The notes below the pieces were generated by a model that made no database searches, was not told the DNA's origin, and worked only from the letters and a program-made list of their open reading frames with translations. A stretch of 64,000 nt of DNA, taken from assembly GCF_050920415.1 (NCBI RefSeq), contig NZ_CP169309.1; one strand, given 5' to 3'. The position numbers and the translations under genes were made by a program. Source of the DNA: Escherichia coli (GTDB lineage Bacteria; Pseudomonadota; Gammaproteobacteria; Enterobacterales; Enterobacteriaceae). Shown piece after piece: positions 2,473 through 27,005 of this stretch. How positions within the stretch are numbered: position 1 is the first letter of the stretch; each line of letters opens with the position of its first letter.

Positions 2473-2913
2473 ATGAAAAAACTAACCTTTGAAATTCGAT
2501 CTCCGGCACATCAGCAAAACGCTATTCACGCGGTACAGCAAATCCTTCCAGACCCAACCAAGCCAATCGTAGTGATCATTCAGGAGCGCAACCGCAGCTT
2601 AGACCAGAATCGGAAGCTTTGGGCTTGCCTTGGTGACGTCTCTCGTCAGGTTGAATGGCATGGGCGTTGGCTGGATGCAGAAAGCTGGAAGTGTGTGTTT
2701 ACCGCAGCATTAAAGCAGCAGGATGTTGTTCCTAACCTTGCCGGGAATGGCTTTGTGGTAATAGGCCAGTCAACCAGCAGGATGCGTGTAGGCGAATTTG
2801 CGGAGCTATTAGAGCTTATACAGGCATTCGGTACAGAGCGTGGCGTTAAGTGGTCAGACGAAGCGCGACTGGCTCTCGAATGGAAAGCGCGATGGGGAGA
2901 TCGGGCTGCATGA
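2473..2913 (+). CDS. ninB: NinB recombination protein
   Basis: Translation MKKLTFEIRSPAHQQNAIHAVQQ... matches lambda NinB as recalled; start at internal ATG 2473 with GGGAGAGGGAAG SD. Confidence 0.9.
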   Translation: MKKLTFEIRSPAHQQNAIHAVQQILPDPTKPIVVIIQERNRSLDQNRKLWACLGDVSRQVEWHGRWLDAESWKCVFTAALKQQDVVPNLAGNGFVVIGQSTSRMRVGEFAELLELIQAFGTERGVKWSDEARLALEWKARWGDRAA

Positions 2914-3437
2914 CTATCAAATCAAATACGCCAGCACACGACAAGGACTGCTGGCAAACGCCGCTTTGGCTTTTTGATGCACTGGATATTGAGTTTGGAT
3001 TCTGGCTGGATTCGGCAGCGAGCGACAAAAACGCTCTGTGCGCTCACTGGCTAACTGAGGCCGACGACGCGCTCAATTCTGAGTGGGTAAGCCACGGTGC
3101 AATCTGGAATAACCCACCGTACAGCAATATCAGGCCGTGGGTGGAAAAAGCCGCTGAGCAGTGTATACAACAGCGACAGACGGTAGTGATGCTTGTGCCA
3201 GAGGATATGTCAGTCGGATGGTTCAGCAAGGCTCTGGAGAGTGTCGACGAAGTTCGTATTATCACTGATGGACGGATTAATTTTATCGAACCATCGACAG
3301 GGCTAGAGAAGAAGGGAAACAGCAAAGGTTCCATGCTGCTGATTTGGCGACCGTTCATCAGTCCTCGACGGATGTTTACTACCGTATCCAAAGCGGCATT
3401 GATGGCGATCGGGCAGGGCGTCAGGAGGGCGGCATGA
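2910..3437 (+). CDS. Phage DNA N6-adenine methyltransferase (Dam-family)
   Basis: NPPY catalytic motif (..[11 protein letters not shown]..); start overlaps ninB stop (ATGA); occupies the ninC/ninD position. Confidence 0.8.
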
Positions 3438-3616: not shown

Positions 3617-3783
3617 TTGACCCAAATCGAAGTTACGAACAAGAAAGCGTAGAGCGGGCTTTAACGTGCGCTAACTGCGGTCAGAAGCTGCATGTGCTTG
3701 AAGTTCACGTGTGTGAGCACTGCTGCGCAGAACTGATGAGCGATCCGAATAGCTCAATGTACGAGGAAGAAGACGATGAATGA
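3613..3783 (+). CDS. ninF: NinF protein
   Basis: GTG start overlapping ninE stop; translation ..[46 protein letters not shown].. matches lambda NinF as recalled. Confidence 0.8.
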
Positions 3784-4498
3784 GTTAATAAATGGCAATG
3801 CTATCAAAATGACAAGCATTGAAATCGCTGAGTTGGTGGGTAAGCGTCAAGACAATGTGAAACGTACCATCGAAACGCTGGCTAAAAATGGTGTTATCCG
3901 GCTTCCTCAAATTGAGGTTTCCGAAAGAATCAATAACTTAGGGTTCAATGTTCAGTACGAGCATTACGTCTTCGAAGGCGAACAAGGTAAGCGAGACAGT
4001 ATTGTCGTTGTTGCCCAGTTGTCGCCGGAATTCACCGCTCGTCTTGTTGACCGTTGGCGAGAGCTTGAGGAAACTGCGGTTAATATCCCCAAAACGCTAC
4101 CAGAAGCGTTGCGCCTTGCTGCTGATCTTGCTGAGCAGAAAATGCAACTGGAAAACCAGCTCGCAATTGCCGCACCTAAAGTTGAGTTTGCCGATCGCGT
4201 TGGCGAGGCCAGCGGAATTTTGATTGGAAACTTTGCAAAGGTTGTCGGTATTGGTCCAAACAAACTGTTTGCGTGGATGCGTGATCACAAAATCCTTATT
4301 GCTTCAGGTTCCCGGCGCAATGTGCCAATGCAGGAATATATGGATCGCGGCTATTTCACAGTGAAAGAAACAGCGGTCAACACAAATCACGGAATACAGA
4401 TATCGTTCACCACAAAAATCACCGGGCGTGGTCAACAGTGGCTGACCAGAAAGCTGCTCGATAACGGAATGCTGAAAGTAACAGGGGAGGCTGCTTAA
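3776..4498 (+). CDS. Rha-family phage regulatory protein with KilA-C/antirepressor-like C-terminal domain
   Basis: N-terminus MTSIEIAELVGKRQDNVKRTIETL resembles Phage_pRha domain; 240 aa in the position normally occupied by ninG. Confidence 0.6.
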   Translation: MNELINGNAIKMTSIEIAELVGKRQDNVKRTIETLAKNGVIRLPQIEVSERINNLGFNVQYEHYVFEGEQGKRDSIVVVAQLSPEFTARLVDRWRELEETAVNIPKTLPEALRLAADLAEQKMQLENQLAIAAPKVEFADRVGEASGILIGNFAKVVGIGPNKLFAWMRDHKILIASGSRRNVPMQEYMDRGYFTVKETAVNTNHGIQISFTTKITGRGQQWLTRKLLDNGMLKVTGEAA

Positions 4499-4788
4499 TG
4501 GCTAACCTACGCAAAGAAGCGCGCAACAGAGAATGCCAGGTACGTATTTACGGCGTATGCAATGGCAATCCTGAAACTACAGTTCTGGCACATTACCGGA
4601 TGGCTGGAATTTGCGGAACGGGAATGAAACCTGACGACCTGATCGGCGCATGGGCTTGTAGTGACTGCCACGCGGAGATCGACCGACGCACAAGGATTCT
4701 CGACAACAAAGACGCCAGACTTTACCACCTCGAAGGCGTGATAAGGACGCAGGCGATACTGCTGAAGGAGGGGAAGATTAAGCCATGA
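4498..4788 (+). CDS. DUF1364-family protein (YbcO-like, putative nuclease)
   Basis: Cys/His-rich translation ..RECQVRIYGVCNGNPETTVLAHYR..CSDCHAEIDRR.. resembles DLP12 YbcO as recalled. Confidence 0.7.
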   Translation: MANLRKEARNRECQVRIYGVCNGNPETTVLAHYRMAGICGTGMKPDDLIGAWACSDCHAEIDRRTRILDNKDARLYHLEGVIRTQAILLKEGKIKP

Positions 4789-5146
4789 ACGAATATCAGT
4801 TTGTGCTTCCATACCCGCCGTCGCTGAACACCTACTGGCGAAGACGGGGAGTCAATACTACATCAGCGATAAAGGCCAGAAATACCGAAAAGACGTTCAG
4901 CAAATCATCCGCCAACTTAAGTTAGACATTTTCACCAAATCACGACTCCGCATCAAAGTCATCGCAGACGTTCCAGACTCCCGCCGCCGCGACCTCGATA
5001 ACATCCTGAAGGGTTTACTCGACTCCCTTATCCACGCCGGATTTGCGGAAGACGACGAGCAATTCGATGACATTCGCGTAATTCGTGGTGTGAAAGTACC
5101 AGGCGGACGGCTTGGAATAAAAATCACCGAACTGGAGAACGTATGA
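4785..5146 (+). pseudogene. rusA: Holliday-junction resolvase RusA, interrupted by an apparent 1-nt deletion near 4848-4851
   Basis: N-terminal RusA-like MNEYQFVLPYPPSLNTYWRRRG in frame 0 from 4785, RusA-like C-terminus ..DVPDSRRRDLDNILKGLLDSLIHAGF..GGRLGIKITELENV in frame -1 ending 5146; span 362 nt is one short of 121 codons. Confidence 0.7.
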
Positions 5147-5331
5147 ACGCCACAATTCAAACGATACCAGAGCTTCTTATCCAGACACGAGGCAATCAGA
5201 CCGAAGTGGCGAGGATGCTTTCCTGCGCAAGAGGAACAGTGCTCAAGTACAACCGAGACAGCAAAGGCGAGCGTCACGTAATAGTTAACGGCGTCCTGAT
5301 GGTCAAACAGGGCAAAAGGGGAAGGCCATGA
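5143..5331 (+). CDS. ninH: NinH protein
   Basis: ..TIPELLIQTRGNQTEVARMLSCARGTVLKY.. resembles lambda NinH as recalled; ATGA overlap with rusA stop. Confidence 0.85.
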   Translation: MNATIQTIPELLIQTRGNQTEVARMLSCARGTVLKYNRDSKGERHVIVNGVLMVKQGKRGRP

Positions 5332-5951
5332 GACTAGAAAGCGTAGCTAAATTTCATTCGCCAAAAAGCCCGATGATGAGTGACTCACCACGGGCCACGG
5401 CTTCTGACTCTCTTTCCGGTACTGATGTGATGGCTGCTATGGGGATGGCGCAATCACAAGCCGGATTCGGAATGGCTGCATTCTGTGGTAAGCACGAACT
5501 CAGCCAGAACGACAAACAAAAGGCTATCAACTATCTGATGCAATTTGCACACAAGGTATCGGGGAAATACCGGGGTGTGGCAAAGCTCGAAGGAAATACT
5601 AAGGCAAAGGTACTGCAAGTGCTCGCAACATTCGCTTATGCTGATTATTGCCGTAGTGCCGCGACGCCGGGCGCAAGATGCAGAGATTGCCACGGTACAG
5701 GCCGTGCGGTTGATATAGCCAAAACAGAGCAGTGGGGGAGAGTTGTTGAGAAAGAGTGCGGAAGATGCAAAGGTGTCGGCTATTCAAGAATGCCAGCAAG
5801 CGCTGCATATCGCGCTGTAACGATGCTAATCCCAAACCTTACCCAACCCACCTGGTCACGCACTGTTAAGCCGCTGTATGACGCTCTGGTGGTGCAATGC
5901 CACAAAGAAGAGTCAATCGCAGACAACATTTTGAATGCGGTCACACGTTAG
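5328..5951 (+). CDS. Q: Late-gene antiterminator Q
   Basis: 207 aa; translation matches lambda Q as recalled (MRLESVAKFHSPKSPMMSDSPRATASDS...). Confidence 0.9.
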   Translation: MRLESVAKFHSPKSPMMSDSPRATASDSLSGTDVMAAMGMAQSQAGFGMAAFCGKHELSQNDKQKAINYLMQFAHKVSGKYRGVAKLEGNTKAKVLQVLATFAYADYCRSAATPGARCRDCHGTGRAVDIAKTEQWGRVVEKECGRCKGVGYSRMPASAAYRAVTMLIPNLTQPTWSRTVKPLYDALVVQCHKEESIADNILNAVTR

Positions 5952-5993
5952 CAGCATGATTGCCACGGATGGCAACATATTAACGGCATGATA

Positions 5994-6022
5994 TTGACTT
6001 TTTGAATAAAGTTGGGTAAATT
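5994..6022 (+). promoter_or_regulatory. Late promoter pR' (-35 TTGACT, 17-bp spacer, -10 TAAATT) with adjacent qut region
   Basis: Sequence TTGACTTTTTGAATAAAGTTGGGTAAATT matches lambda pR' as recalled. Confidence 0.7.
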
Positions 6023-6056
6023 TGACTCAACGATGGATAAATGCACTCGTTAAATA

Positions 6057-6085
6057 AAGCCCTGAGTTAATAGCTGGGGCTTTTT
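6057..6085 (+). terminator. tR'-like terminator downstream of pR'
   Basis: Hairpin AGCCCT..GGGGCT followed by TTTTT. Confidence 0.55.
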
Positions 6086-6383
6086 GCGTTTTAAGCACGA
6101 CCTTTCTGAAAGCGCATCAAACCAAATACCAGACAGACCAAAATAATCACCTTATCCGCTGTGGCTACGGTGCGGTGTGCTTTGCATAAAAGAAAACCAG
6201 CTCAATGGCTGGCTTCGTGAAAGCGGGTGGCAAGAGGTTGCGCTAACAACCTCATGCCGTTTTGCCCGTGCATATCGGTCACGAACAAATCTGATTACTA
6301 AACACAGTAGCCTGGATTTGTTCTATCAGTAATCGACCTTATTCCTAATTAAATAGAGCAAATCCCCTTATTGGGGGTAAGAC

Positions 6384-6707
6384 ATGAAGATGCCAGAAAA
6401 ACATGACCTGTTAGCCGCCATTCTCGCGGCAAAGGAACAAGGCATCGGGGCAATCCTTGCGTTTGCAATGGCGTACCTTCGCGGCAGATATAATGGCGGT
6501 GCGTTTACAAAAACAGTAATCGACGCAACGATGTGCGCCATTATCGCCTGGTTCATTCGTGACCTTCTCGACTTCGCCGGACTAAGTAGCAATCTCGCTT
6601 ATATAACGAGCGTGTTCATCGGCTACATCGGTACTGACTCGATTGGTTCGCTTATCAAACGCTTCGCTGCTAAAAAAGCCGGAGTAGAAGATGGTGGAAA
6701 TCAATAA
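6384..6707 (+). CDS. S: Holin S (dual-start MKM)
   Basis: 107 aa; [34 protein letters not shown]... matches lambda S as recalled. Confidence 0.9.
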
Positions 6708-7167
6708 TCAACGTAAGGCGTTCCTCGATATGCTGGCGTGGTCAGAGGGAACTGATAACGGACGTCAGAAAACCAGAAATCATGGTTATGACGTCATTGT
6801 AGGCGGGGGGCTATTCACTGATTACTCCGATCACCCTCGCAAACTTGTCACGCTAAACCCCAAACTCAAATCAACAGCAGCCGGACGTTACCAGCTTCTT
6901 TCCCGTTGGTGGGATGCCTACCGCAAGCAGCTTGGCCTGAAAGACTTCTCTCCGAAAAGTCAGGACGCTGTGGCATTGCAGCAGATTAAGGAGCGTGGCG
7001 CTTTGCCGATGATTGATCGCGGTGATATTCGTCAGGCAATCGACCGTTGCAGCAATATCTGGGCTTCACTGCCGGGCGCTGGTTATGGCCAGTTCGAGCA
7101 TAAGGCTGACAGCCTGATTGCAAAATTCAAAGAAGCAGGCGGAACGGTTAGAGAGATTGAGGTATGA
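6691..7167 (+). CDS. R: Endolysin R (lytic transglycosylase)
   Basis: 158 aa; [39 protein letters not shown].. matches lambda R as recalled. Confidence 0.9.
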
Positions 7168-7601
7168 GCAGAGTCACCGCGATTATCTCCGCTCTGATTA
7201 TCTGCATCGTCGTCTGTCTGTCATGGGCGGTCAATCATTACCGTGATAACGCCATCGCCTACAAAGAACAGCGCGATAAGGCCGCATCCACAATCGCTGA
7301 CATGCAGAAGCGTCAACGTGATGTAGCAGAACTTGACGCCAGATACACAAAGGAGCTTGCTGATGCTAATGCGACTATCGAAAGTCTCCGTGCTGATGTT
7401 TCTGCTGGTCGTAAGCGCCTGCAAGTCGCCGCCACCTGTGCAAAGTCAACGACCGGAGCCAACAGCATGGGCGATGGAGAAAGCCCAAGACTTACAGCAG
7501 ATGCTGAACTCAATTATTACCGTCTCAGAAGTGGAATCGACAAGATAACCGCGCAGGTTAACTACCTGCAGGAATACATCAGGACGCAATGCCTGAAATG
7601 A
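7164..7601 (+). CDS. Rz: Spanin inner-membrane subunit Rz
   Basis: 145 aa with N-terminal TM segment, directly after R. Confidence 0.85.
7363..7548 (+). CDS. Rz1: Spanin outer-membrane lipoprotein Rz1, embedded in +1 frame of Rz
   Basis: Embedded ORF with signal peptide and lipobox-like LLVVSAC followed by Pro-rich segment. Confidence 0.65.
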
Positions 7602-7635
7602 TGGGCGATGAAAACCAAAAAACAGGAGCAATACA

Positions 7636-7910
7636 TGACTAAGCTTTATCACCGCATCTCAACTTTTCTCTCTGGGTGCTGGGCGTTTATCACGTCTATT
7701 TCGTTCGCCATCTTTAGTTTCGGTAGCACAGCATGCTCGCTTAGTCGGGGTATGTGGCGTGCTATTTCAGCACTAGCGCCGAAATTTTTACCTGAAAAGG
7801 CTGTTTGGCGAATTGTAGAGCGAATGTGTAGTGAGAGCGTTCGCGAGAAGATTAACGTATTTGGGCGTCATCCTCGAAATACAGGCGCATTGTGCAGTTC
7901 GTTACTGTAG
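7636..7910 (+). CDS. Hypothetical small membrane protein (91 aa)
   Basis: ATG 7 nt downstream of AGGAG; hydrophobic segment FLSGCWAFITSISFAIFSF; no recognised family. Confidence 0.3.
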
Positions 7911-8139
7911 TCATTACAAAGCCCATCAATGGGTGGGCTTGATAATGAAACCGGAATTTATTCTGGGCCACCAGTTAACGGCAGTACAGCGAAACAACCC
8001 AAGCCAGTAAGTGGGGAAATAACACTGGCAGCCACTGAAAGATGAACCTCCTGCCTTATGGCAAAAAAGATTCTTTGTGGTGGCGGACTGATGGAAAGAC
8101 ATCCACTGAATCGATGATAAACAAGTGGAATAGGTTGCG

Positions 8140-8310
8140 ATGGTTTCCGTGAACAAAGATCCGAAGGAAGGCGTTGAATACATCACTGGTGCTGATGGTG
8201 TGAAAAGGCCAATGGCTTATTACAAAGCTGCTGAAGAGAGGGCAAGAATGGAAAATCCCCCTAAATGCGGATCATTTTTCGACATGCTGGACCTTCAATG
8301 GAAGTTGTGA
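8140..8310 (+). CDS. Hypothetical small protein (56 aa)
   Basis: ORF MVSVNKDPKEGVEYITGADGVKRPMAYYKAAEERARMENPPKCGSFFDMLDLQWKL followed 10 nt later by a hairpin+T-run terminator; weak SD. Confidence 0.3.
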   Translation: MVSVNKDPKEGVEYITGADGVKRPMAYYKAAEERARMENPPKCGSFFDMLDLQWKL

Positions 8311-8319
8311 ACAACTAAC

Positions 8320-8344
8320 AGGTCGCTCAGGCGGCCTTTTTTAT
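8320..8344 (+). terminator. Rho-independent terminator
   Basis: AGGTCGC-TCAG-GCGGCCT stem (one G-U) followed by TTTTTTA. Confidence 0.5.
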
Positions 8345-8449
8345 TGCCATCACAAAAGCCATTCCCTACATAGTGGCTTTGATAATGGCTTATACCCTAC
8401 ACGGGATAACTTAACTGATATCCCTTTTAACGGATAAACGGAGCCAACA

Positions 8450-8771: not shown

Positions 8772-9260
8772 ATGGCAGCACCAAAGGGCAACCGATTTTG
8801 GGAGGCCCGCAGTAGTCATGGGCGAAATCCTAAATTCGAATCGCCTGAGGCGCTGTGGGCTGCTTGTTGTGAATACTTCGAGTGGGTGGAAGCTAACCCG
8901 CTATGGGAGATGAAGGCGTTCTCGTATCAGGGTGAAGTAATACAAGAGCCTATCGCCAAGATGCGAGCGATGACCATTACCGGCCTCACTCTGTTCATTG
9001 ATGTGACGCTTGAAACATGGCGCACATATCGCCTGCGAGAAGATTTATCTGAAGTCGTTACGCGAGCAGAACAGGTCATCTACGACCAGAAATTCTCTGG
9101 CGCAGCCGCTGACCTTCTCAACGCTAACATCATCGCCCGTGATTTGGGCCTCAAAGAGCAGTCGCAAGTTGAAGACGTGACACCTGATAAGGGAGATCGC
9201 GATAAGCGGCGCTCTCGTATCAAGGAGCTATTCAACCGTGGAACTGGACGCGATTCTTGA
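8772..9260 (+). CDS. Terminase small subunit (P22 gp3-like)
   Basis: 162 aa; matches P22 gp3 length and position as recalled. Confidence 0.85.
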
Positions 9261-10737
9261 TAACCTGAGCGACGAAGAGCAAATCGAGTTGCTCGAGCTA
9301 CTCGAAGAAGAAGAGAACTACCGGAACACACACCTGCTATATGAATTTACGCCATACAGCAAGCAGCGTGAGTTCATCGACGCCGGGCATGACTATCCAG
9401 AGCGATGTTTTATGGCTGGTAACCAGCTTGGTAAGTCATTTACTGGTGCTGCTGAAGTCGCGTTTCACCTTACCGGTCGTTATCCGGGCACAAAAGGCTA
9501 TCCTGCTGATGGTAAATATGGCGGTGAGTGGAAAGGTAAGCGTTTCTATGAGCCTGTTGTCTTCTGGATTGGTGGAGAGACAAACGAGACTGTAACCAAA
9601 ACGACTCAACGCATCCTGTGCGGTCGTATCGAAGAGAATGGTGAGCCAGGCTACGGTTCCATACCGAAAGAAGACATCATTAGCTGGAAGAAGTCTCCTT
9701 TCTTTCCGAACCTTGTTGATCATCTTCTGGTTAAGCATCACACGGCTGATGGCGTTGAAGATGGCATTTCAATCTGCTACTTCAAACCATACTCGCAAGG
9801 CCGTGCTCGCTGGCAGGGTGACACAATCCACGGCGTGTGGTTTGACGAAGAGCCACCATACAGCATTTATGGCGAAGGTCTTACCCGTACCAACAAATAC
9901 GGGCAATTCTCAATTCTGACGTTTACCCCGCTGATGGGGATGTCTGACGTTGTTACCAAGTTCCTGAAGAATCCCAGCAAGTCTCAGAAAGTGGTCAACA
10001 TGACCATCTATGACGCTGAGCACTACACCGACGAGCAGAAAGAGCAAATCATCGCATCCTATCCTGAGCATGAGAGAGAGGCGCGTGCTCGCGGTATTCC
10101 TACGATGGGTAGTGGTCGAATCTTCCAGATACCGGAAGAGACGATTAAGTGTCAGCCGTTCGAGTGTCCTGATCACTTCTACGTAATTGGCGGTATGGAT
10201 TTCGGATGGGATCACCCGCAGGCGCAGGTTCAGCTTTGGTGGGATAAGGACGCAGACATAATCTACCTTTCACGCGTTTGGAAGGCGAAAGAAAAGACAG
10301 CCGTTCAGGCGTGGGGAGCTGTTAAACCATGGGCGCATAAAGTGCCAACCGCATGGCCTCATGACGGAAACCAGCACGAGAAGGGCGGCGGTGAGCAGCT
10401 CAAAGGGCAGTATGCGGACGCTGGATTTATGATGTTGCAGGAGCATGCGACATGGCCTGATGGCGGTAACGCTGTTGAGCCTGGCATCACTGAATTGCGA
10501 GACATGATGCTCGACGGTCGCTTCAAAGTATTCAACACCTGTGAGCCATTCTTTGAGGAGTTCCGCCTCTATCACCGTGATGAAAACGGGAAAATCGTCA
10601 AGCTTAACGACGACGTGCTATCCGCCGTTCGCTATGCATACATGATGCGCCGCTTCGCAAAAATGATGCGCGACATCAAAAAGCCAAAAGAGAAAAAGAT
10701 ACCAGCCCCAATCAGGCCCATCGCACGGAGAACTTAA
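9238..10737 (+). CDS. Terminase large subunit (P22 gp2-like)
   Basis: 499 aa; position between small terminase and portal. Confidence 0.85.
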
Positions 10738-12903
10738 ATGGCCGACGAAAACAGACTCAATTCCATTCTGTGTAAGTTTGACGCAGACTGGATGGCGAGC
10801 GATGAAGCCAGAACCGAGGCGACAAATGACCTGTATTTTAGCCGAGTGTCGCAATGGGATGACTGGCTATCAAACTACACCACCCTGCAATATCGCGGAC
10901 AATTCGATGTTGTTCGCCCGGTGGTCAGGAAGCTGGTCGCAGAGATGCGCCGGAACCCTATCGATGTTCTCTTCAGACCAAAAGACGGCGCTAATCCTGA
11001 TGCTGCCGATGTGCTGATGGGGATGTATCGTACTGATATGCGCCATAATACGGCAAAAATTGCCGTTAACGTTGGCGTTCGTGAGCAGATAGAGTCAGGC
11101 GTTGGTGCATGGCGTCTGGTCACGCAGTACGAAGACAACGATCCAACAAGCAACAATCAGGTAATCCGACGCCTGCCAATCCATGAAGCCTGCTCACACG
11201 TCATATGGGACGCCAACAGCAAGCAGATGGATAAGAGCGACGCTAAGCACTGCACGGTGATTAACGCCTTGTCGCGCAATGGCTGGAAAGAGTTCGCAGA
11301 GGATTACGGTATTGATCCGGACACGCTGCCATCTTTCCAGAATCCAAACGATACATGGCTGTTTCCGTGGGTATCGAATGATGTCGTCTACGTCGCTGAG
11401 TATTACGAGGTCGAAGAGAAGAAAGAGAAAGTCTTCATCTACCGCGACCCGCTGACAGGTGAGCCGGTCAGCTATTACCAGCAGGATATCAAAGACGTCA
11501 TCGACGACCTGGCTAATCGTGGATTCATTAAGGTAGCAGAGCGCAAGGTGAAGCGTCGGCGTGTGTATAAGTCGATCGTCACCTGCACGCAGATACTGAA
11601 AGACCGCGAGAAGATAGCCGGAGAGCATATTCCAATCGTTCCAGTATATGGCGAATGGTCATTCGCTGGTGACAAGGAGTGCTACGAAGGAGTGGTAAGG
11701 CTGACGAAAGACGGTCAACGCCTTCGTAACATGATCATGTCATTCAACGCCGATATTGTTGCTCGTTCACCGAAGAAGAAACCGACCTTCTTCCCTGAGC
11801 AAATCGAAGGCTACGAATACATGTACGGTGGAAATGATGACTATCCGTACTATCTGCAGAACAGGACCGATGAAAACGGCAACGACCTGCCGATTGGTCC
11901 AATCTCCTACATGGAAAACCCTGAAGTGCCGCAAGCCAACGCTTACATGCTTGAGGCTGCCACCAACGCAGTGAAAGAGGTGGCTAGTCTTGGTGTGGAT
12001 GCGCAGGCAGCAAACTCTCAGGTCGCTTTCGATACCGTCAATCAACTGAACATGCGGGCAGACCTTGAGACATACGTGTTTCAGGATAACCTTGCTACCG
12101 CAATGCGACGTGATGGCGAGATTTATGCTTCAATGGTCAATGATATTTATGACGTTCCTCGTCATGTAACGCTGACACTTGAAGATGGTAGCGAGAAAGA
12201 CGTTCAACTCTACGCGCAAGTTGTAGATTACCAGTCCGGTAATGTGGTCACACTCAACGACATTCGCGGTCGCTATGAGTGCTATACCGACGTTGGACCA
12301 TCCTTCCAGAGTATGAAGGAACAGAACCGCGCAGAGATTCAGGAGTTACTCACCAAGGTTCCGCAAGGTACTCCAGAGTTCCAGATGCTGATGTTGCAAT
12401 ACTTCACGCTGCTTGACGGTAAAGGCGTCGAGATGATGCGAGAGTACGCGAACAAGCAACTGGTGATGATGTGGCTGAAGAAACCAGAAACACCTGAAGA
12501 GATGGAGATGGTGCAACAGGCGCAACAGCAGCCGCAGCAGCCATCAGCAGAGCAAATTCAGGCGCAGGGTATCCTTCTGCAAGGTCAGGCTGAATTGATC
12601 AAGGCAGAGAACCAACAGGCGCAGATTCAGGTTGAAGCCGCCAAGGTTGAAGCCCAAAACCAACTCAACGCCGCGAAGATTGCAGAAATCTTCAACAATA
12701 TGGACCTCGACAAGCAGGCAGAACTGCGTGAGTACCTCAAGCTCGTAGGTCAATTCCAGCAACAGCGCAGCAAAGATGCTCGTGCTAACGCTGAGCTGCT
12801 TCTTAAAGATGCAGACCAGACTCATTCACAACGCATGGATTTCGCGAATCTTATGCGTCAAGTTCAAATCCCCTCCGGCGGAGTAGCCGAGACACCTCAA
12901 TAA
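10738..12903 (+). CDS. Portal protein (P22 gp1-like)
   Basis: 721 aa; translation closely matches recalled P22 portal (..[30 protein letters not shown]..). Confidence 0.95.
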
Positions 12904-12916
12904 GAGAGAGTTAACC

Positions 12917-13828
12917 ATGGACCAAACCACCGACATTCAGGCTTCTGAAGAATTAACCCTGCCCGGCAATCATGCAGCGGCATCTGCTGATGGCTTAGTT
13001 GTCGATAATGCCAACGACAGCGCAGGTCAGGAAGAAGGCTTTGAGATTGTCCTGAAAGACGATGAGAAACCAAAACAAGACCCGGCAACTAATGCTGAAT
13101 TTGCCCGTCGCCGCATCGAACGCAAACGCCAGCGTGAGCTTGAGCAGCAGATGGAAGCGGTTAAGCGTGGAGAGTTGCCGGAGCACCTGCGGGTGAACCC
13201 TGAGTTACCAAAACAACCAGACCCTAACGATTATCTTTCCGAAGATGCACTGGCTAAGTACGACTATGACCAGAGCCGCGCACTGGCTGCCTTCCAGCAG
13301 GCAAACAGTGAATGGCAGATCAAGGCCATGGACGCACGAAGCCAGGCTGTCGCCGAGCAGGGTCGCAAAACTCAGGAGTTCACCCAGCAATCAGCGCAAT
13401 ACGTCGAGGCAGCCCGTAAGCACTACGACGCAGCGGAAAAGCTCAATATCCCTGACTATCAGGAGAAAGAGGATGCATTCATGCAACTGGTGCCGCCAGC
13501 AGTCGGTGCCGACATCATGCGCCTCTTCCCGGAGAAATCCGCTGCTCTCATGTATCACCTTGGTGCTAATCCTGAGAAAACACGCCAGTTACTGGCGATG
13601 GACGGGCAATCCGCGCTGATTGAACTCACTCGACTGTCAGAACGTTTAACTCTCAAGCCTCGAGCCAAGTCTGTTTCAGAAGCCCCGTTACCTGATGAAC
13701 CCATTCAGGGACACGCTGTTGCTGCAAATATCTCTGCGATTGAAAAGCAGATGGAAGCGGCAGCAAACAAAGGTGATGTAGAGACGTACCGCAAGCTTAA
13801 GGCGCAACTGAATAAAGGAATTCGATAA
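12917..13828 (+). CDS. Scaffolding protein (P22 gp8-like)
   Basis: 303 aa, acidic/helical, between portal and coat. Confidence 0.85.
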
Positions 13829-15123
13829 TGGCATTAAATGAAGGTCAACTGGTCACATATGCTCTGGATGAAATCATCGAAACCGTCCAGAACCTGACGC
13901 CAATGGCGTCCAAAGTGACAAAATACACCCCTCCGGCAGAATCCATGCAACGTTCAAGCAACACCGTGTGGATGCCTGTTGAGCAGGAAGCGCCAACTCA
14001 GACAGGCTGGGATTTAACTGGCAACGCAACCGGGATTCTGGAACTCTCCGTGAAATGCAACATGGGCGATCCGGATAACGATTTCTTCGAGCTTCGTGCA
14101 GATGACCTGCGTGATGAGCGTTCTTACCGTCGCCGCATCCAGGCATCCGCCAAAAAACTGGCGAATAACATTGAGTCAGCAATTGCCAAACAGGCAACCG
14201 AAATGGGCTCACTTGTTGTTCACGATACCCGCGCAATTGGTCCATCTACTGGCCTGTCTGGCTGGGATTTTGTGTCTGATGCAGAGCGCCTGATGTTCTC
14301 CCGTGAGCTAAACCGCGATATGGGCATCAGTTACTTCCTGAACCCTGACGATTACCGCAAAGCAGGCCGCAACCTGGTAGATGGTGACATCTTTGGGCGC
14401 GTTCCTGAAGAAGCGTATCGTAACGGTACTATTCAGCGTCAGATTGCTGGCTTTGATGAAATTCTTCGCTCACCGAAACTTCCGGCAGTTACCAAGTCAA
14501 CCGCTACTGGTGTAACTGTTTCTGGTGCGCAGAAGTTTAAGCCGCAGGCATACACCCTTGATACCGATGGTAACAAAGAGAACGTCGACAACCGTGTTGC
14601 AACGGTGACCGTATCCTCCACCACCGGATTTAAGCGCGGCGACAAAATCAGCTTCACTGGTGTGAAATTCCTATCTCAGATGGCGAAGAACGTGCTGACT
14701 GATGATGCTACTTTCTCAATCACCCGAGTGATCGATAGTACTCACATCGAAATCACGCCGAAGCCGATTGCGCTGGATGACTCGTCACTGACAAAAGAAG
14801 AGAAGGCTTACGCTAACGTAAACACCTCTCTTGCTGATGCCACTCCGGTAAACGTTCTGAACGTGGCAACAACCACCGCTAACGTGTTCTGGGCTGATGA
14901 CTCAATCCGCCTGCTGTCTCAGCCGATTCCGGTAACCCATGAACTGTTTGCTGGCATGAAAACTTCTTCCTTCAGCATTCCAGGTATTGGTGTTAACGGC
15001 ATCTTCGCAACGCAGGGTGATATCAACACTCTGTCTGGCAAGTGCCGTATTGCTGTGTGGTATTCAGCATGTGCTGTACGACCAGAGGCAATTGGTGTTG
15101 GTCTGCCTAACCAGACTGCGTGA
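13828..15123 (+). CDS. Major coat protein (P22 gp5-like)
   Basis: 431 aa; matches recalled P22 coat (MALNEGQ.., ..[27 protein letters not shown]..). Confidence 0.95.
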
Positions 15124-15131
15124 TAACCAGA

Positions 15132-15154
15132 GGGAGCTTCGGCTCCCTTTTTTA
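15132..15154 (+). terminator. Rho-independent terminator after coat gene
   Basis: GGGAGC-TTCG-GCTCCC hairpin followed by TTTTTTAT. Confidence 0.75.
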
Positions 15155-15167
15155 TCTGGAGACAAGC

Positions 15168-15405
<238 letters not shown>

Positions 15406-15428
<23 letters not shown>

Positions 15429-15906
15429 TTTAGTTCTTGCGGCATTACGTAAGCTCGGTGTGGCATCAAATGCCACGTTAACCGATGTCGAACCGCAGTC
15501 TATGGAAGACGGCGTCAACGACCTTGAAATGATGATGGCTGAATGGCTTGGCGGTGATGTGTCACCTGGTATCAACGTTGGCTACATTTTCGCTGATGCA
15601 GATGTCGCTCCAGATCCGGGCGATGAGCACGGTTTATCAAATAACGCTATCAATGCTGTCATTTTCAACCTTGCCTGCCGCATTGCACCGGATTATGCGC
15701 TGGAAGCGCCTGCAAAACTTATAACCACTGCCAGATACGGGAAAGAGCGACTCGTCAAACTGTCTGCAATGGACAGAGCAAAAGCCGCTAAATGTAAGTC
15801 CGGTTATCCAAACCGTATGCCTGTTGGTAGCGGTAACCAGTTGGCGAAGTGGAACGGTTGGAATTACTTCCACCGAAAGGAACCTTGCGATAACGGGAGC
15901 GAATAA
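15406..15906 (+). CDS. Head completion/tail accessory protein (P22 gp4-like)
   Basis: Start at internal ATG 15406 ([32 protein letters not shown]..), resembles P22 gp4 as recalled. Confidence 0.8.
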
Positions 15907-17324
15907 TGCCGATTCAGCAACTTCCGCTCATGAAAGGTGTCGGCAAAGATTTCCGAAACGCCGACTATATCGACTATCTGCCAGTGAATATGTTGGCTAC
16001 ACCCAAAGAAATCCTCAACAGCAGCGGATATCTTCGCTCATTCCCGGGCATTGCCAAACGCTCTGATGTGAATGGTGTATCGCGCGGTGTCGAGTACAAC
16101 ATGGCGCAGAATGCTGTTTATCGCGTTTGCGGTGGCAAGCTGTACAAAGGAGAAAGTGAAGTCGGTGACGTTGACGGAAGTGGTCGTGTATCAATGGCGC
16201 ATGGTCGGACATCACAGGCGATAGGCGTTAATGGTCAACTGGTCGAGTATCGCTATGATGGCACGGTTAAAACCGTCTCAAACTGGCCTACAGACAGCGG
16301 ATTCACACAGTACGAGTTAGGTTCAGTTCGCGACATTACGCGCTTACGTGGGCGTTATGCGTGGTCAAAAGACGGAACTGATTCATGGTTTATCACTGAC
16401 CCTGAAGACGAATCGCACCCTGACCGATACAGTGCACAATATCGCGCAGAATCGCAGCCGGACGGCATCATCGGTATCGGGACATGGCGAGACTTCATCG
16501 TCTGCTTTGGTTCTTCGACGATTGAGTATTTTTCCCTGACTGGTGCAACCACCGTTGGTTCTGCTTTGTATGTCGCCCAGCCATCGCTGATGGTGCAGAA
16601 AGGCATTGCCGGGACTTACTGCAAAACGCCATTCGCTGATTCTTATGCGTTTATCAGCAATCCGGCAACAGGTGCGCCGTCTGTGTATATCATTGGCTCC
16701 GGTCAGGTGTCACCAATCGCCAGCGCGAGCATTGAGAAAATTCTCCGCTCCTACACTGCTGATGAACTGGCTGATGGTGTGATGGAGTCTCTGCGATTTG
16801 ATGCGCATGAGCTGCTGATTATCCATCTTCCGCGCCATGTTCTGGTGTACGACGCATCTTCAAGCGCCAATGGTCCGCAATGGTGTGTGCTGAAAACAGG
16901 CCTGTATGACGATGTGTACCGCGCTATCGACTTCATTTACGAAGGCAATCAGATAACGTGCGGCGATAAGCTGGAATCCGTGACCGGGAAATTGCAGTTC
17001 GATATCAGCAGTCAGTACGACAAGCAACAGGAACACCTGCTGTTTACTCCTTTGTTCAAAGCAGATAACGCCAGAGTTTTCGACCTTGAAGTTGAATCTT
17101 CAACTGGCGTTGCGCAGTACGCCGACCGCCTGTTCCTCTCTGCAACCACTGACGGCATAAATTACGGTCGTGAGCAGATGATTGAGCAGAATGAACCGTT
17201 CGTTTACGACAAACGCGTTTTGTGGAAGCGTGTCGGGCGCATCAGGAAAAATGTCGGCTTCAAATTGCGCGTTATCACGAAGTCACCTGTAACTCTGTCT
17301 GGCGCTCAGATAAGGATTGAGTAA
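15906..17324 (+). CDS. Tail accessory protein (P22 gp10-like)
   Basis: 472 aa; position in P22 gene order. Confidence 0.8.
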
Positions 17325-18172
17325 TGGCGGATTCGAATCTCAATGTGCCGGTAATCATCCAGGCTACGCGGCTCGATACATCAGTCCTTCCACGCAATAT
17401 CTTCTCGCAGTCGTATCTGCTGTACGTTATCGCGCAAGGTACTGATGTTGGTAACGTGGCTAACAAGGCCAACGAGGCCGGACAGGGCGCTTATGATGCA
17501 CAGGTCAGGAACGATGAGCAGGATGTGATTCTCGCTGACCATGAGCAGCGAATTTCTGCTGCGGAAGCAACGCTTGTTAATCATGAGGAGCGAATCAGCC
17601 AGGCAGAATCAACTCTTCAGGAACATGAAACGCGAATCGCTCAGAATGAAAGCGATATTGCGTCGCTTGATACCAGAGTTCAGTCGCTGGAATCGCAGGT
17701 TTCAGATCATGAATCGCGCATTGATGCTCTGGATTATGCAACCACGCGCAAGAAGTCAGAGGTTGTTTACTCTGGCGTATCAGTAACCATTCCGACAGCG
17801 CCGACCAACCTTGTTAGCCTACTGAAAACGCTCACGCCGTCATCCGGCTCGTTGACACCATTCTTCGACACCGTTAACAACAAGATGGTTGTGTTCAACG
17901 AGAACAAAACCTTGTTCTTCAAGCTGTCGATCGTCGGGACGTGGCCCAGCGGAACCGCCAACAGGTCAATGCAACTAAGCTTTTCCGGCTCTGTTCCTGA
18001 CACACTGGTAAGCAGTCGCAACTCGGCGACAACAACCGATAACATCCTGTTAGCTACGTTCTTCAGCGTGGATAAAGACGGCTTTCTTGCCACAAATGGC
18101 AGTACGTTAACCATTCAGTCAAATGGTGCGGCGTTTACTGCCACAACCATCAAAATCATTGCGGAGCAGTGA
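17324..18172 (+). CDS. Tail needle protein (P22 gp26-like, long C-terminal domain)
   Basis: Heptad-repeat coiled coil ([40 protein letters not shown]..); 282 aa. Confidence 0.8.
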
Positions 18173-18627
18173 TGATTCAGTTCAAACCAACGCGAAACAT
18201 CGACTTGATCGAAGCAGTCGGAAATCACCCTGACATTATTGCCGGGAGCAACAACGGTGATGGATACGACTACAAACCTGATTGCCGTTACTTTGAGGTG
18301 AACGTGCACGGGCAGTTCGGCGGCATTGTTTACTATCAGGAGATTCAGCCGCTGACATTCGATTGCCACGCCATGTACCTGCCAGAGATTCGCGGCTTCA
18401 GCAAGGAAATTGGGCTGGCGTTCTGGCGATACATTCTGACTAACACCACCGTCCAGTGTGTCACATCGTTCGCCGCACGCAAATTCCGCCACGGTCAGAT
18501 GTACTGCGCAATGATTGGCCTTAAGCGTGTAGGAACCATCAAGAAATACTTCAAAGGCGTGGATGACGTGACTTTTTACAGCGCCACACGCGAAGAACTA
18601 ATCGACTTCCTGAATCACGGGAGATAG
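18169..18627 (+). CDS. Head assembly protein (P22 gp14-like)
   Basis: 152 aa; position in P22 gene order. Confidence 0.7.
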
Positions 18628-18629
18628 CC

Positions 18630-19322
18630 ATGTTATATGCATTTAAGCTGGGCAGAAAACTGCGCGGCGAGGAACCTTATTGCCCTGAAAAAGGCGGGAA
18701 AGGTGGCAGCTCTGATAAAAGCGCAAAGTATGCAGCAGAAGCTCAGAAGTATGCTGCAGATCTGCAAAATCAGCAGTGGCAGACGATCATGAAAAACCTT
18801 GCTCCGTTCACGCCTCTTGCGGAGCAGTATGTTAACCAGCTTCAGAACCTTTCCAGTTTAGAAGGTCAGGGGCAGGCACTTAATCAGTATTACAACTCTC
18901 AGCAGTATAAAGACCTTGCAGGTCAGGCTCGTTACCAGAGTCTTGCTGCTGCGGAGGCTACGGGAGGACTTGGTTCGACAGCCACAAGCAATCAACTGGC
19001 TACGATCGCGCCTACACTCGGTCAGTCTTGGTTATCAAACCAGATGAGCAATTACAACAATCTGGCAAACGTTGGGCTTGGTGCGCTGCAAGGTCAGGCA
19101 AACGCCGGGCAGACGTACGCCAACAACATGAGCAGCATTGCACAGCAAAGCGCAGCACTTGCCGCTGCTAATGCCAATAAACCATCAAGTCTTCAGACTG
19201 CAATTAGCGGTGGCACGTCTGGTGCGATTGCCGGTGCAGGTCTTGCCAGCCTTTTGGGAACATCAACGCCTTGGGGCGCTGGCATTGGTGCTGGTATCGG
19301 ATTGCTTGGCTCGTTGTTTTAA
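18630..19322 (+). CDS. Ejection (injection) protein, gp7-like
   Basis: 230 aa; Gln/Ala-rich with Gly-rich hydrophobic C-terminus; position. Confidence 0.75.
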   Translation: MLYAFKLGRKLRGEEPYCPEKGGKGGSSDKSAKYAAEAQKYAADLQNQQWQTIMKNLAPFTPLAEQYVNQLQNLSSLEGQGQALNQYYNSQQYKDLAGQARYQSLAAAEATGGLGSTATSNQLATIAPTLGQSWLSNQMSNYNNLANVGLGALQGQANAGQTYANNMSSIAQQSAALAAANANKPSSLQTAISGGTSGAIAGAGLASLLGTSTPWGAGIGAGIGLLGSLF

Positions 19323-19331
19323 GGGGTAATC

Positions 19332-20738
19332 ATGGCTACTTGGCAAGGAACAAACGGCGGATTGTTGGCTGGTATCGGCGGCGTCAACTCAAACGCTCCG
19401 AGCGTAAATGACATCGGCAATACGCTTCAGCTTATCAGGCAGAACAATGATATTGAGCGTTCAGGCGCTAACAATGTTGGGCTGACTGCTTTGCAAGGCC
19501 TTTCAGGTATTGCGGGGGTGTTTCAGCAGGAAAAGCAGGCTCAGCGGCAGAAAGAATTTCAGCAGGCATACGCTAATGCTTATGCGTCTGGTGATCGCGG
19601 TGCTTTGCGTCAGTTGGCTACTCAATATCCAGACCAGATTGAATCCGTTCGTAAAGGCATGGGATTCATTGATGAAGACCAGCGTAATTCTATCGGCACC
19701 TTAGCGGCTGGCGCTCGCCTTGCGGCATCGTCTCCAGAAGCGATGCAATCATGGCTGCAAAACAACGCCAAGGAACTGACTCGCGTAGGTGTTGACCCTA
19801 ACAACGTTGCTCAGATGTATCAGCAGAATCCTTCAGGATTTGGTGAGTTTGTTGATCACCTTGGGATGGCTGCTCTTGGTCCGATTGATTACTTCAATGT
19901 TCAGGACAAGATGGCTGGTCGTGAAATTGACCGAGGCAGGCTGGCAGAGACAATCCGCAGCAATCAGGCTGGCGAGGCACTTCAGGCGAGAGGGCAAAAC
20001 CTTTCCTATCAGTCAGCAATGACTGGACACAATATCGCAGCGCAACGCTTGGCTCTGGATCAGCAAGAGTTCGGGTTTAAGATGCAGCAAGCGCAGGAAA
20101 AGGCTCAGCAGTTGATTAGCGAAGCACCTAAGCTGTCAGTAAACATGGAAAAAGGCATCGAGACGGCTGTAAACAATGCCACAGCATCATCAAACTCAGC
20201 CAATTCCATGAGTGCGCTTGCTCAACAGTTCAGAGCAGAAAAACCAACGACAGGTTTGTTCGGTAACGCACAGAACATGTTCGCAAAACTTACCGGAAGC
20301 GATACGACATTGCGTGATTTGCGCATTCGCCAAAATGCCCTTGTTAACAGTCAGGTTCTTAAATTCCTACCTCCCGGCCCAGCAACGGATAAAGACGTTG
20401 AGATCGTTCGACAGGGTGCGCCAACTGACATGGATAACCCTGAGACGGTCGCAAGATGGCTTGATGCAATGGCAAACCTTGAGCGACGAAACGCGCAGTT
20501 TAATGAGTTTAAAGCCGAGTGGATGAGCGCGAATGGCAACCCTGGACAATCGCGTAATGGCGGTCAGATATTGGGGTTGGATGTTAAAAAAGGTGAATCA
20601 TTGGGGAGTGCCGTTAAGCGGTATATGTCAATGAATACTGACGCAGCGCCAGCACAAGATTCGACACCTTCAGGAGAACCACGGAATCAGGTTGGATCAT
20701 ATACCTCAAAATCAGGCATTCAATTTACGGTGGAATGA
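19332..20738 (+). CDS. Ejection protein, gp20-like
   Basis: 468 aa; position. Confidence 0.75.
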   Translation: MATWQGTNGGLLAGIGGVNSNAPSVNDIGNTLQLIRQNNDIERSGANNVGLTALQGLSGIAGVFQQEKQAQRQKEFQQAYANAYASGDRGALRQLATQYPDQIESVRKGMGFIDEDQRNSIGTLAAGARLAASSPEAMQSWLQNNAKELTRVGVDPNNVAQMYQQNPSGFGEFVDHLGMAALGPIDYFNVQDKMAGREIDRGRLAETIRSNQAGEALQARGQNLSYQSAMTGHNIAAQRLALDQQEFGFKMQQAQEKAQQLISEAPKLSVNMEKGIETAVNNATASSNSANSMSALAQQFRAEKPTTGLFGNAQNMFAKLTGSDTTLRDLRIRQNALVNSQVLKFLPPGPATDKDVEIVRQGAPTDMDNPETVARWLDAMANLERRNAQFNEFKAEWMSANGNPGQSRNGGQILGLDVKKGESLGSAVKRYMSMNTDAAPAQDSTPSGEPRNQVGSYTSKSGIQFTVE

Positions 20739-22741
20739 TGAAAGTAACTGCAAACGGTAAGACATTTACCTTCCCTGATGGTACGAGCACGGAAGATATT
20801 GGCACCGCCATTGATGAGTATTTTGCTGGTCAGTCAGCACCAACACAACAAGGTGTTCAGCAATCGCCAGCAGACAACTCACTTGCATCAGGATATGCAC
20901 AGCTTGCCACTCAGCAGAAGGAAGGACTAGATCGCTCTGCTGAGCAAGGGGCTGTTTTAGGTGCTGCAATGCGCGATGCCGTTACCGGTGAAAGCCGAAT
21001 GACACCAGAAATGGAGAGACTGCAAAATGTTGGGTCTGCTCCAGAGCTTAATAGCTTAAGCACTGATGCGCTGCGTGCTGGATTGGGGCAGCTATTTGGT
21101 TCCGACGCTTCACAGGAGAAAATACTGCAAAGTATTGGCGGGAAAATCCGGAAGGATGAGAAGGGAAATTCCATAGTCACCCTTCCTTCAGGGGAATATG
21201 CACTTAACAAGCCTGGTTTGTCACCGCAGGATATAACGTCATTCTTGGCAAATGCTCTTGCATTCACTCCAGCAGGTAGAGCTGCGTCTGTTGTAGGTGC
21301 AACACTAAAATCAGGCGCTACTGATTTAGCTTTACAGGGTGCCACTAAGATCGCTGGCGGTGAGAATGTTAATCCAGTTCAAACTGCAATTTCTGCTGGT
21401 CTTGGTGGGGTACTGAAGGGTGTAGAAAACACCGCAAGCGCAGTGTCTCGTTCTGCTATGGGTAAGATTGCTCCTGAAAAACAAGCTCAGATTGACTTTG
21501 CCAAGCAGAACAACTTGCCACTGATGACAACAGATCTTGTGGAACCGGGAACAAATATTGGTAAGCAAGCACGAGCTATGGCTGAGCGAATCCCAATAGC
21601 CGGAACAGGTGGGATAAGAAATGCACAGCAAAAGGCCAGGGAAGATTTAGTTAGAACTTTTAGCGATAATGTTGGTGGAATATCTGACGCACAACTTTAC
21701 CAATCAGCTACTCGTGGTCAGCAGCAATTTATTCAGGCTGCTGGCAAGCGGTACGACAGGATCATCAGTTTGATGGGGGATACTCCTGTTGACATCACTG
21801 GAACAGTGAAAGCAATTGATGAGCAGATTTCCAAGTTAACTCGCCCAGGAGTATCGCAAGATCGCTCAGCTGTTTCTGTCCTTCAACAGTTTAGAAATGA
21901 CATCACCAGCGGTCCAAATAACCTGCAATTAGCTAGAGAAAACCGTACAAACTTACGTAAGCGCTTTATGGCAGCACCTGACGAGGTCGATAGAGATACG
22001 CTGGAGAAAGCTGCGCAGTCTGTTTATAACGCATACACAACAGACATGAAAAAAGCGGTTGGCGCAAAACTAGGTGCGAAGGAAGCGCAAAACATGTCGC
22101 GTGTTGATCGTTCTTGGGCAAAGTTCAACGACATGATGAGCAATACACGTGTCCAAAAAGCTATTCAGAGTGGTAAAACAACGCCAGAAGATGTCACTAA
22201 ACTAGTATTCAGCCAAAGCCCAGCGGAAAGGGCGCAACTTTATCGATTGCTTGATGATAGTGGGCGTCAAAATGCTAGAGCAGCACTTGTTCAGCGTGCA
22301 ATGGATAAGGCGACAAGCGATTCAGGAAAGCTTAGCGTTGAGAAGTTTATTAATGAAATGAAAAGGAATCGGAAGCAGGCTGAGACGTTCTTCAGAGGAG
22401 AGCATGGGAAACAGCTTGATGGGATAATGAAATATCTTGATTCCACTAGACAGGCAGCTACTGCTGCCGCAAGCCCACTAACAGGGCAAATGGTAGCTGG
22501 TCCAGCAGCGCTGATAACAGCTCTTGCGTCTGTTACAAATCCAATGTTTGCAAAAGTTGCGGCAGTTGGAGCTGGTATCGGTATGGCTGGCAGGGGCTAT
22601 GAGTCACGCGCGATGAGGAACGCATTACTAAAGTTAGCAAACACGCCAAAAGGAAGTACTGCTTATGATAGAGCGATCAGACGGGTATCTGAAACTCTTA
22701 CACCTCTAATTCAGGCTTCAAGTGAGAAAGCCCAGCAGTAA
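20735..22741 (+). CDS. Ejection protein, gp16-like
   Basis: 668 aa; position. Confidence 0.75.
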   Translation: MMKVTANGKTFTFPDGTSTEDIGTAIDEYFAGQSAPTQQGVQQSPADNSLASGYAQLATQQKEGLDRSAEQGAVLGAAMRDAVTGESRMTPEMERLQNVGSAPELNSLSTDALRAGLGQLFGSDASQEKILQSIGGKIRKDEKGNSIVTLPSGEYALNKPGLSPQDITSFLANALAFTPAGRAASVVGATLKSGATDLALQGATKIAGGENVNPVQTAISAGLGGVLKGVENTASAVSRSAMGKIAPEKQAQIDFAKQNNLPLMTTDLVEPGTNIGKQARAMAERIPIAGTGGIRNAQQKAREDLVRTFSDNVGGISDAQLYQSATRGQQQFIQAAGKRYDRIISLMGDTPVDITGTVKAIDEQISKLTRPGVSQDRSAVSVLQQFRNDITSGPNNLQLARENRTNLRKRFMAAPDEVDRDTLEKAAQSVYNAYTTDMKKAVGAKLGAKEAQNMSRVDRSWAKFNDMMSNTRVQKAIQSGKTTPEDVTKLVFSQSPAERAQLYRLLDDSGRQNARAALVQRAMDKATSDSGKLSVEKFINEMKRNRKQAETFFRGEHGKQLDGIMKYLDSTRQAATAAASPLTGQMVAGPAALITALASVTNPMFAKVAAVGAGIGMAGRGYESRAMRNALLKLANTPKGSTAYDRAIRRVSETLTPLIQASSEKAQQ

Positions 22742-24778: not shown

Positions 24779-25348
24779 ATGTCAAGCTTAGCAAAGTCAA
24801 CTGTAAATTGCACTAATAGCATCATCATTTCTGACGTCAAGATTCATATGGATTCAGAGGGTCGTTACTCGCTTAATGACCTTCATGTAGCGTCTGGAAA
24901 GGAGGAAAAACATCAGCCAGCTTTCTTCATGCGTAGAAATGAAACTATTGAATTGATTAATGAAATTTTTAATTCTGCGGATATGCAGAATAAGAATCCC
25001 GTCATTTCTAAGAAAGGTAGATATGGTGGAACATACGTGTGCAAGGAGCTTGTTTACTCCTACGCCATGTGGATTAGCGCAGCATTTGCGCTGAAGGTTA
25101 TCCGCGCATATGACGCAATGGTTACTGCCACACAAGAGAGGAAGGCTATTGGCGGTAAAACTTCAGTAGCTGAACGCACGCCGCTACGCGATGCAGTAAA
25201 CATGCTGGTAGGAAAGAAAGGACTTCGCTATGACGATGCATACAATATGGTTCATCAGCGTTTTGGTATTGACAGCATTGATGAACTTTCAATTGAACAA
25301 ATCCCGCTGGCCGTAGAGTACATCCACAGGGTAGTGCTTGAAGGTGAG
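24779..25348 (+). pseudogene. ant: Antirepressor Ant, 5' part (KilA-N domain), interrupted by IS2
   Basis: KilA-N-like N-terminus; reading frame runs into IS2 left end, which supplies the stop (TAG at 25349-25351). Confidence 0.75.
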
Positions 25349-25439
25349 TAGACTGGCCCCCTGAATCTCCAGACAACCAGTATCACTTAAATAAGTGATA
25401 GTCTTAATACTAGTTTTTAGACTAGTCATTGGAGAACAG

Positions 25440-25805
25440 ATGATTGATGTCTTAGGGCCGGAGAAACGCAGACGGCGTACCACACAGGAAAAGATCGCAA
25501 TTGTTCAGCAGAGCTTTGAACCGGGGATGACGGTCTCCCTCGTTGCCCGGCAACATGGTGTAGCAGCCAGCCAGTTATTTCTCTGGCGTAAGCAATACCA
25601 GGAAGGAAGTCTTACTGCTGTCGCCGCCGGAGAACAGGTTGTTCCTGCCTCTGAACTTGCTGCCGCCATGAAGCAGATTAAAGAACTCCAGCGCCTGCTC
25701 GGCAAGAAAACGATGGAAAATGAACTCCTCAAAGAAGCCGTTGAATATGGACGGGCAAAAAAGTGGATAGCGCACGCGCCCTTATTGCCCGGGGATGGGG
25801 AGTAA
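25440..25805 (+). CDS. insC: IS2 transposase OrfA
   Basis: [41 protein letters not shown].. matches InsC as recalled. Confidence 0.9.
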
Positions 25806-26668: not shown

Positions 26669-26679
26669 GGGCAAATCCA

Positions 26680-27005
26680 GTGAGTTCATTGGCAAACAAG
26701 AGAAGAAAACCAACGAGCTTTCTGCAAAAGAAGCAAACAGCCTTGTATGGTTATGGGATTATGCCAACCGCTCACAGGCATTATTCCGCGAATTGTATCC
26801 GGCATTAAAACAAATTCAATCGAACTATTCCGGCAGATGTCATGACTGCGGTTATGAGTTCTCCCGTATTATCGATATAGCGAGAGACGTTTTAATTAAT
26901 CACACACGAGATGTTGATATCAATGAGCCAGACGGACCAACGAATCTTTCCGCATGGATGAGACTTAAGAATAAAGAATTACCTCCTTCAGTACATAATT
27001 ACTGA
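26680..27005 (+). pseudogene. ant: Antirepressor Ant, 3' part
   Basis: After removing IS2 and one TSD copy (1336 bp) this frame joins 24779..25348 in frame, reconstructing a 296-aa protein. Confidence 0.7.

Follow-up and report, generated by a model that had tools for sequence, protein, structure and literature searches.

The rusA gene of a P22-like prophage in Escherichia coli is broken as written by the loss of one G from an ancestral run of five, which would leave a null allele. Alignment to relatives places the loss in a G run near the 5' end of the gene, and reinsertion of a single G restores the nearest intact allele exactly. Whether the base was lost in the organism or only in the assembly was judged from other single-base indels of the same prophage, and on balance we lean towards a local consensus error, not a mutation in the organism.

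Gene content and location of the prophage

The window (the whole stretch of 64,000 nt of E. coli contig NZ_CP169309.1 that was analyzed) begins within a P22-like (Lederbergvirus-type) prophage. Its genes run in the order primase/helicase, ninB, dam, ninE, ninF, roi, ybcO, rusA, ninH, Q, lysis genes and terminase, followed by portal, coat, injection proteins, immI region, tailspike and intS. The prophage abuts tRNA-Arg(CCT) (argW, 30526-30600), beside intS (29207-30400) and yfdC. The structural genes (8772-22741) are all intact and have the expected lengths. The phage N-6-adenine methyltransferase gene (dam, 2910-3437), which lies between ninB and ninE, and a 240-aa gene of Roi/KilAC type (Phage_pRha plus ANT, 3776-4498), which lies upstream of ybcO, are likewise intact, and both are typical of a mosaic nin module.

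The antirepressor gene (ant) contains an IS2-like element of the IS3 family, about 1.33 kb long (25349-26680), which separates its KilA-N N-terminal portion (24779-25351) from its C-terminal portion (26643-27005). This insertion is undoubtedly a real lesion, and real decay of the prophage is under way. E. coli PEC422 has an IS of 95.6% identity in the tailspike gene instead, at the equivalent of window positions 28562-28567.

Outside the prophage, window positions 30520-64000 match the independent complete genome of E. coli MFDS1022581 (NZ_CP169399.1, 1565559 onward) base for base, with 100% identity and no indel, and no frameshifted genes are annotated in this region. The argW site of MFDS1022581 is empty and its 33.5-kb flank shows 0 differences, which indicates that acquisition or excision of the prophage is very recent compared with chromosomal divergence. 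In the yfc operon, the gene for a StfH/YfcO-family fimbrial adhesin (about 46876-47721) is annotated with an 'internal stop' in MFDS1022581 and is intact in N96 and R32_14_1F.

Table 1. Features of the rusA locus, single-base indels private to the window, and reading frames of the IS2-like element (positions in the window)
Feature	Position	Strand	Remarks
ybcO-like (DUF1364) putative nuclease gene, 96 aa	4498..4788	+	Pfam PF07102 YbcO, E=2.3e-42
rusA 5' fragment as written	4785..4925	+	22 native codons (MNEYQFVLPYPPSLNTYWRRRG), 24 out-of-frame codons, TAG
Frameshift site in rusA, G5 to G4 (private deletion)	4846..4849	+	G4 run, one G of ancestral G5 gone; from alignments to relatives
rusA 3' part, -1 frame	4850..5146	+	98 codons and TGA; all catalytic residues
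ninH, 62 aa	5143..5331	+	Pfam PF06322 (Phage_NinH), E=2e-24
Late antiterminator Q, 207 aa, intact	5328..5951	+	Next gene of the nin operon
Private deletion, C lost	6076		3' arm of a 13-bp terminator-like hairpin (6040-6085, T run after), between Q and the holin gene
Private deletion, C lost from GATCGGG	7603		Two nt after the Rz stop
Private insertion, A gained	7977		Intergenic; 2/2 comparators without the extra A
Private deletion, TT to T	28520		P22-type tailspike gene; extra T in 6/6 E. coli genomes with the allele
IS2-like element, orfA	25395-25805
IS2-like element, orfB	25763-26668

The rusA gene is divided between two reading frames

Positions 4785-5146 of the window hold an rusA gene of the HK97/HK022 type, with a length of 362 nt against the usual 363 nt. 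The ORF at its 5' end has an ATG start and 46 codons and stops at a TAG (4923-4925), and its product gave no Pfam match. The -1 frame is open from upstream as far as 5146 and reads SQYYISDKGQ...GGRLGIKITELENV before its stop (in a longer reading, SQYYISDKGQKYRKDV...SRRRDLDNILK...AEDDEQ...GGRLGIKITELENV and stop). The part of this frame at 4850-5143 matched the RusA family PF05866 (E=2.8e-12, 47.8 bits with a cut-off of 22.8, profile positions 19-123 of 124). By the alignment to PDB 1Q8R, the equivalents of R69, D70, D72, N73, K76 and D91 are all kept in the SRRRDLDNILK and AEDDEQ segments, downstream of the frameshift. D70, D72 and D91 form the cation-binding site of E. coli RusA, for which the roles of the catalytic residues have been described (PMC1636454). 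The first-pass annotation had named the gene rusA, with its N-terminus in frame 0 from 4785 to 4925 and its C-terminus in the -1 frame to 5146. The name was borne out by the PF05866 match and by the ybcO-like (DUF1364) and ninH flanks, and both segments are present. Its span of 362 nt, given as one nt short of 120 aa plus stop, agrees with the relatives, which all have 363 nt (HK97, mEpX1, HZ41, HK620, E. coli 0H26 and 10 contigs with the identical YbcO protein).

The closest alleles read CGGGGGAGTC at the G run and the window reads CGGGGAGTC (GACGGGGGAGTC and GACGGGGAGTC, respectively, in a longer view). GGGGG was found at this site in L013, L011, L012, L016, L018, L019, 0H26 and HZ41, and GGGGAA in other alleles. 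The nearest allele is the intact rusA of L013, a draft E. coli genome (GCA_000194575.2, contig AEXD01000007.1). After insertion of one G, the window gene has 120 codons and 0 nt differences from the L013 allele, while it differs from 14 other intact alleles at 2-9 nt. Judged from these alignments, the event reads as a homopolymer contraction from G5 to G4. The break had first been placed near 4848-4851, which was correct to within 1-2 nt, and the claim of a single 1-nt deletion with no other change holds, as the repaired gene is 100% nucleotide-identical to the L013 allele.

As written, rusA would yield a peptide of 46 aa that has 22 native residues and lacks all of D70, D72, D91 and K76, and it is predicted to be null, because the catalytic residues all lie downstream of codon 22 and the 3' part offers no start codon upstream of 5088. 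We considered whether the catalytic part might be translated independently and rejected this: ATG, GTG and TTG are all missing from the -1 frame between 4742 and 5088, and no ORF is listed there. A RusA gene is expected to be one uninterrupted ORF of about 120 codons, and frame 0 stops after 46; the lambdoid nin context expected of such a gene is present, with ybcO/DUF1364 upstream and ninH and Q downstream. The gene as written is therefore best described, as far as sequence can tell, as a putative RusA-family pseudogene, without the status of a functional member.

The flanking genes had also been described as translationally coupled by ATGA overlaps. The overlaps are present as sequence, one at 4785-4788 (ybcO stop and rusA start) and one at 5143-5146 (TGA of the rusA frame and ninH start). 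However, the coupling of rusA to ninH is kept as sequence only and would not be functional, because ribosomes stop at 4925, 218 nt upstream of the ninH ATG. Since ninH is preceded by a Shine-Dalgarno sequence of its own (GGAG, six nt before the ATG), expression of ninH and Q downstream of the broken rusA is predicted to persist. The exact YbcO protein occurs on many contigs, and in 10/10 places shown it is directly followed by an intact 120-aa RusA. At the position of Q, an antitermination protein is annotated in HK97, mEpX1 and HK620.

The deleted allele was not found in other genomes

Short-query megablast was performed against 5,426 complete E. coli genomes, and the deleted rusA allele was not found in the 784 E. 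coli records with 854 places (best match 81 nt versus 82 nt). It was also found in 0/75 phage records, and exact-pattern scans gave no match in IMG/VR, in JGI metagenome contigs or in GTDB species representatives. Neither the exact 46-aa rusA product nor the exact 505-aa product of the truncated tailspike gene is on record, and the searches for the deleted allele revealed no sister assembly with the same prophage. There is hence no polymorphism between in-frame and out-of-frame alleles, which weighs against both phase variation and conserved recoding at this site.

Single-base indels private to the window

Comparison of the prophage with every fetched relative (at least 93% identity, 28 kb covered) revealed five single-base indels private to the window, four deletions and one insertion (Table 1). 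Four of the five fall within 3.1 kb (4846-7977) in the nin-Q-lysis module, and three of the five are in non-coding DNA. Three of the four deletions occur in, or immediately 5' of, runs of at least three G, although such positions make up only 5% of the prophage (P=5e-4), and two deletions take a C beside a G run. A query spanning 5900-8400 (from the 3' end of Q to downstream of the lysis genes) matched a median of 2 and a maximum of 12 places per matching E. coli genome; consensus calling and polishing tend to be least reliable in repeats such as the nin-Q-lysis module.

The deletion at 6076 changes the predicted energy of the hairpin from -19.1 to -12.5 kcal/mol and is shared by 0/322 E. coli records with the segment. 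This hairpin is probably a late-operon terminator that Q reads through. The segment around 7603 gave no full-length exact match. Behind Rz, the exact product of a 100-aa ORF (7608-7910) in a poorly coding stretch is not on record.

The tailspike gene (27106-29063, head-binding domain PF09008) is split by the change from GATGTTAAAA to GATGTAAAA into ORFs of 505 and 156 aa, while the same allele in E. coli ETEC1730 is one CDS of 652 aa. A P22-like particle without tailspike is not infectious, so a real frameshift in this gene must postdate lysogeny. If the deletion is real, no infectious particles would come from the prophage.

Three further differences were rejected as lesions of the window. 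At 7747, where G3 is set against G4, three other relatives agree with the window and L013 is the outlier; L013 has its own private single-G deletion at position 6253, the equivalent of window 7747 (GGG versus GGGG). The gap pairs at 19833/19842 and 27135/27139 are not frameshifts and were attributed to alignment artefacts of substitution clusters. Because comparator assemblies such as L013 also have homopolymer indels, no single comparator should be taken as ground truth.

Consensus error, mutation and recoding as explanations

The missing G is slightly more likely than not a consensus error of the homopolymer type that is confined to the prophage segment of the assembly. At positions 3721-7786, a single substitution and 3 private deletions separate the window from L013, whereas changes private to the window lineage in the adjacent chromosome are 66 substitutions and 3 single-base indels (about 20:1; p=0.001, Fisher's exact test; p=0.018 with all 6 substitutions from 3641 onwards). 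An error process would have to be local to the prophage, because the adjacent chromosome is identical to that of MFDS1022581. General sloppiness of the assembly was rejected on the same identity and on the intact structural genes. Several observations count against consensus error, namely the clean chromosome at 30520-64000, the clean structural genes at 8772-22741 and the ant gene hit by an IS, and they favour the tenable alternative, to which we give less than even weight, that the loss of function is real and very recent. It would have arisen by replication slippage from G5 to G4 in a resident prophage no longer under selection, and rusA would be a young pseudogene beside a frameshifted tailspike gene and an IS-interrupted ant. 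The IS2-like insertion cannot be a sequencing error, and it reveals that the prophage gathers real lesions. The adjacent 33.5 kb are base-perfect and have no frameshifted genes, which speaks against an assembly that is error-prone in general. Natural frameshifts arise most often by homopolymer contraction, and G5 to G4 is a classic natural slippage, so that such an event in rusA is plausible. Moreover, rusA, as a gene of the nin region, is dispensable for lambdoid phages, and a frameshift in the tailspike gene would relax selection on the whole prophage. The location of three of the five private indels in non-coding DNA also fits tolerated real mutations better than blind errors. However, a real mutation has to be reconciled with 3 private deletions in a region with 0 substitutions in rusA and 1 in 4 kb, when the chromosome shows about 20 substitutions per indel. 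Two of the private deletions drop a C beside a G run and are not slippage products, and one destabilizes a terminator hairpin that does not vary among 322 E. coli records. Additionally, the empty argW of MFDS1022581 with 0 differences in the 33.5-kb flank would imply that the deletions came in implausibly quick succession or that the prophage was recently and precisely excised in the sister lineage. The first-pass annotation had left the choice between a recent pseudogene and a sequencing error; this pair of readings is supported, and the private indels elsewhere in the prophage tilt it somewhat to error.

A functional frameshift, either by a -1 slip of tRNA-Gly from GGA (4848-4850) to GGG (4847-4849) or by phase variation of the G run, is very improbable. 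If a single tRNA slipped by -1 at CGG GGA, the wild-type RRRG-SQYY would be restored exactly, with AGT from 4850 read as Ser, which is encoded by AGC or AGT in the relatives, and three rare Arg codons (CGA AGA CGG) stand just before the site. In E. coli K-12, where activation of the quiescent rusA has been described (PMC1636454), RusA is biologically active even at very low levels. However, no canonical X XXY YYZ heptamer is present at 4842-4853, and folding of the next 80 nt gives -4.5 kcal/mol (z=+0.82 versus shuffles), which means no downstream structure. Out-of-frame alleles were found in 0 of more than 850 homologous E. coli places and in 0/75 phages, and known contingency tracts are much longer than a run of 4-5 G. 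Programmed frameshifting and phase variation were thus both rejected, as the slippery heptamer, the stimulatory structure and a conserved two-frame arrangement, by which a programmed -1 ribosomal frameshift is recognized, are all absent. It is equally hard to credit that the G4 allele is real and leaky, with an occasional -1 slip of tRNA-Gly at CGG-GGA, after the three rare Arg codons, giving trace amounts of wild-type RusA; if so, a Holliday-junction resolvase would be available to the lysogen at a low and non-toxic level.

Whether it is a mutation or an error, the frameshift in rusA is ordinary and not novel. Its biological weight is small, since the loss, which would be recent, affects at most a single dispensable recombination gene in a single prophage. 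The practical value of the analysis is a quality flag on the five private indels before rusA and the tailspike gene are called pseudogenes or the prophage is called defective; as a by-product, it gives a list of suspect single-base indels and of real lesions in the same prophage.

Comparison with known RusA proteins and nin regions

By its sequence, the window gene is predicted to be an ordinary phage rusA of an already known kind, encoding a Holliday-junction resolvase of the RusA family. The phages HK97 (gp67), HK022, mEpX1 and HK620 and E. coli prophages have the same order of roi, DUF1364/ybcO, rusA, ninH and Q with the same ATGA overlaps, and the gene order around rusA is identical in HK97, mEpX1, HK620 and the 10 contigs. 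DNA identity of the four-gene block to HK97/HK022-type phages is 96-98%. The repaired RusA is the same as the proteins of the 0H26 allele (WP_001008180.1) and the L013 allele, and it is 1-2 residues from the others. The difference is that the window frame is broken after codon 22, whereas every relative examined (HK97-type, 0H26, L013) is intact.

The alignment with DLP12 rusA that the first-pass annotation had proposed as a check was made at the protein level. The repaired protein and E. coli K-12 RusA from DLP12 (PDB 1Q8R, 2H8C, 2H8E) could be aligned over residues 1-119 with no gap (E=3e-26 against 1Q8R), with about 44% identity (52/119 aligned positions). Both proteins have 120 aa, and both are prophage-borne and encoded beside ybcO. 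The K-12 gene is intact but transcriptionally silent, whereas the window gene has a favourable position for expression and is, as written, frameshifted. In related P22-like and lambdoid genomes, the equivalent slot of the nin region is occupied by lambda Rap/NinG, a structure-specific endonuclease on recombination intermediates; for example, APC_JM3.2 and E. coli MSB1_9D have ninG-ninH where the window has ybcO-rusA-ninH. Rap/NinG is a functional analogue of RusA from an unrelated family, not a homologue, and no sequence similarity between the two is expected.
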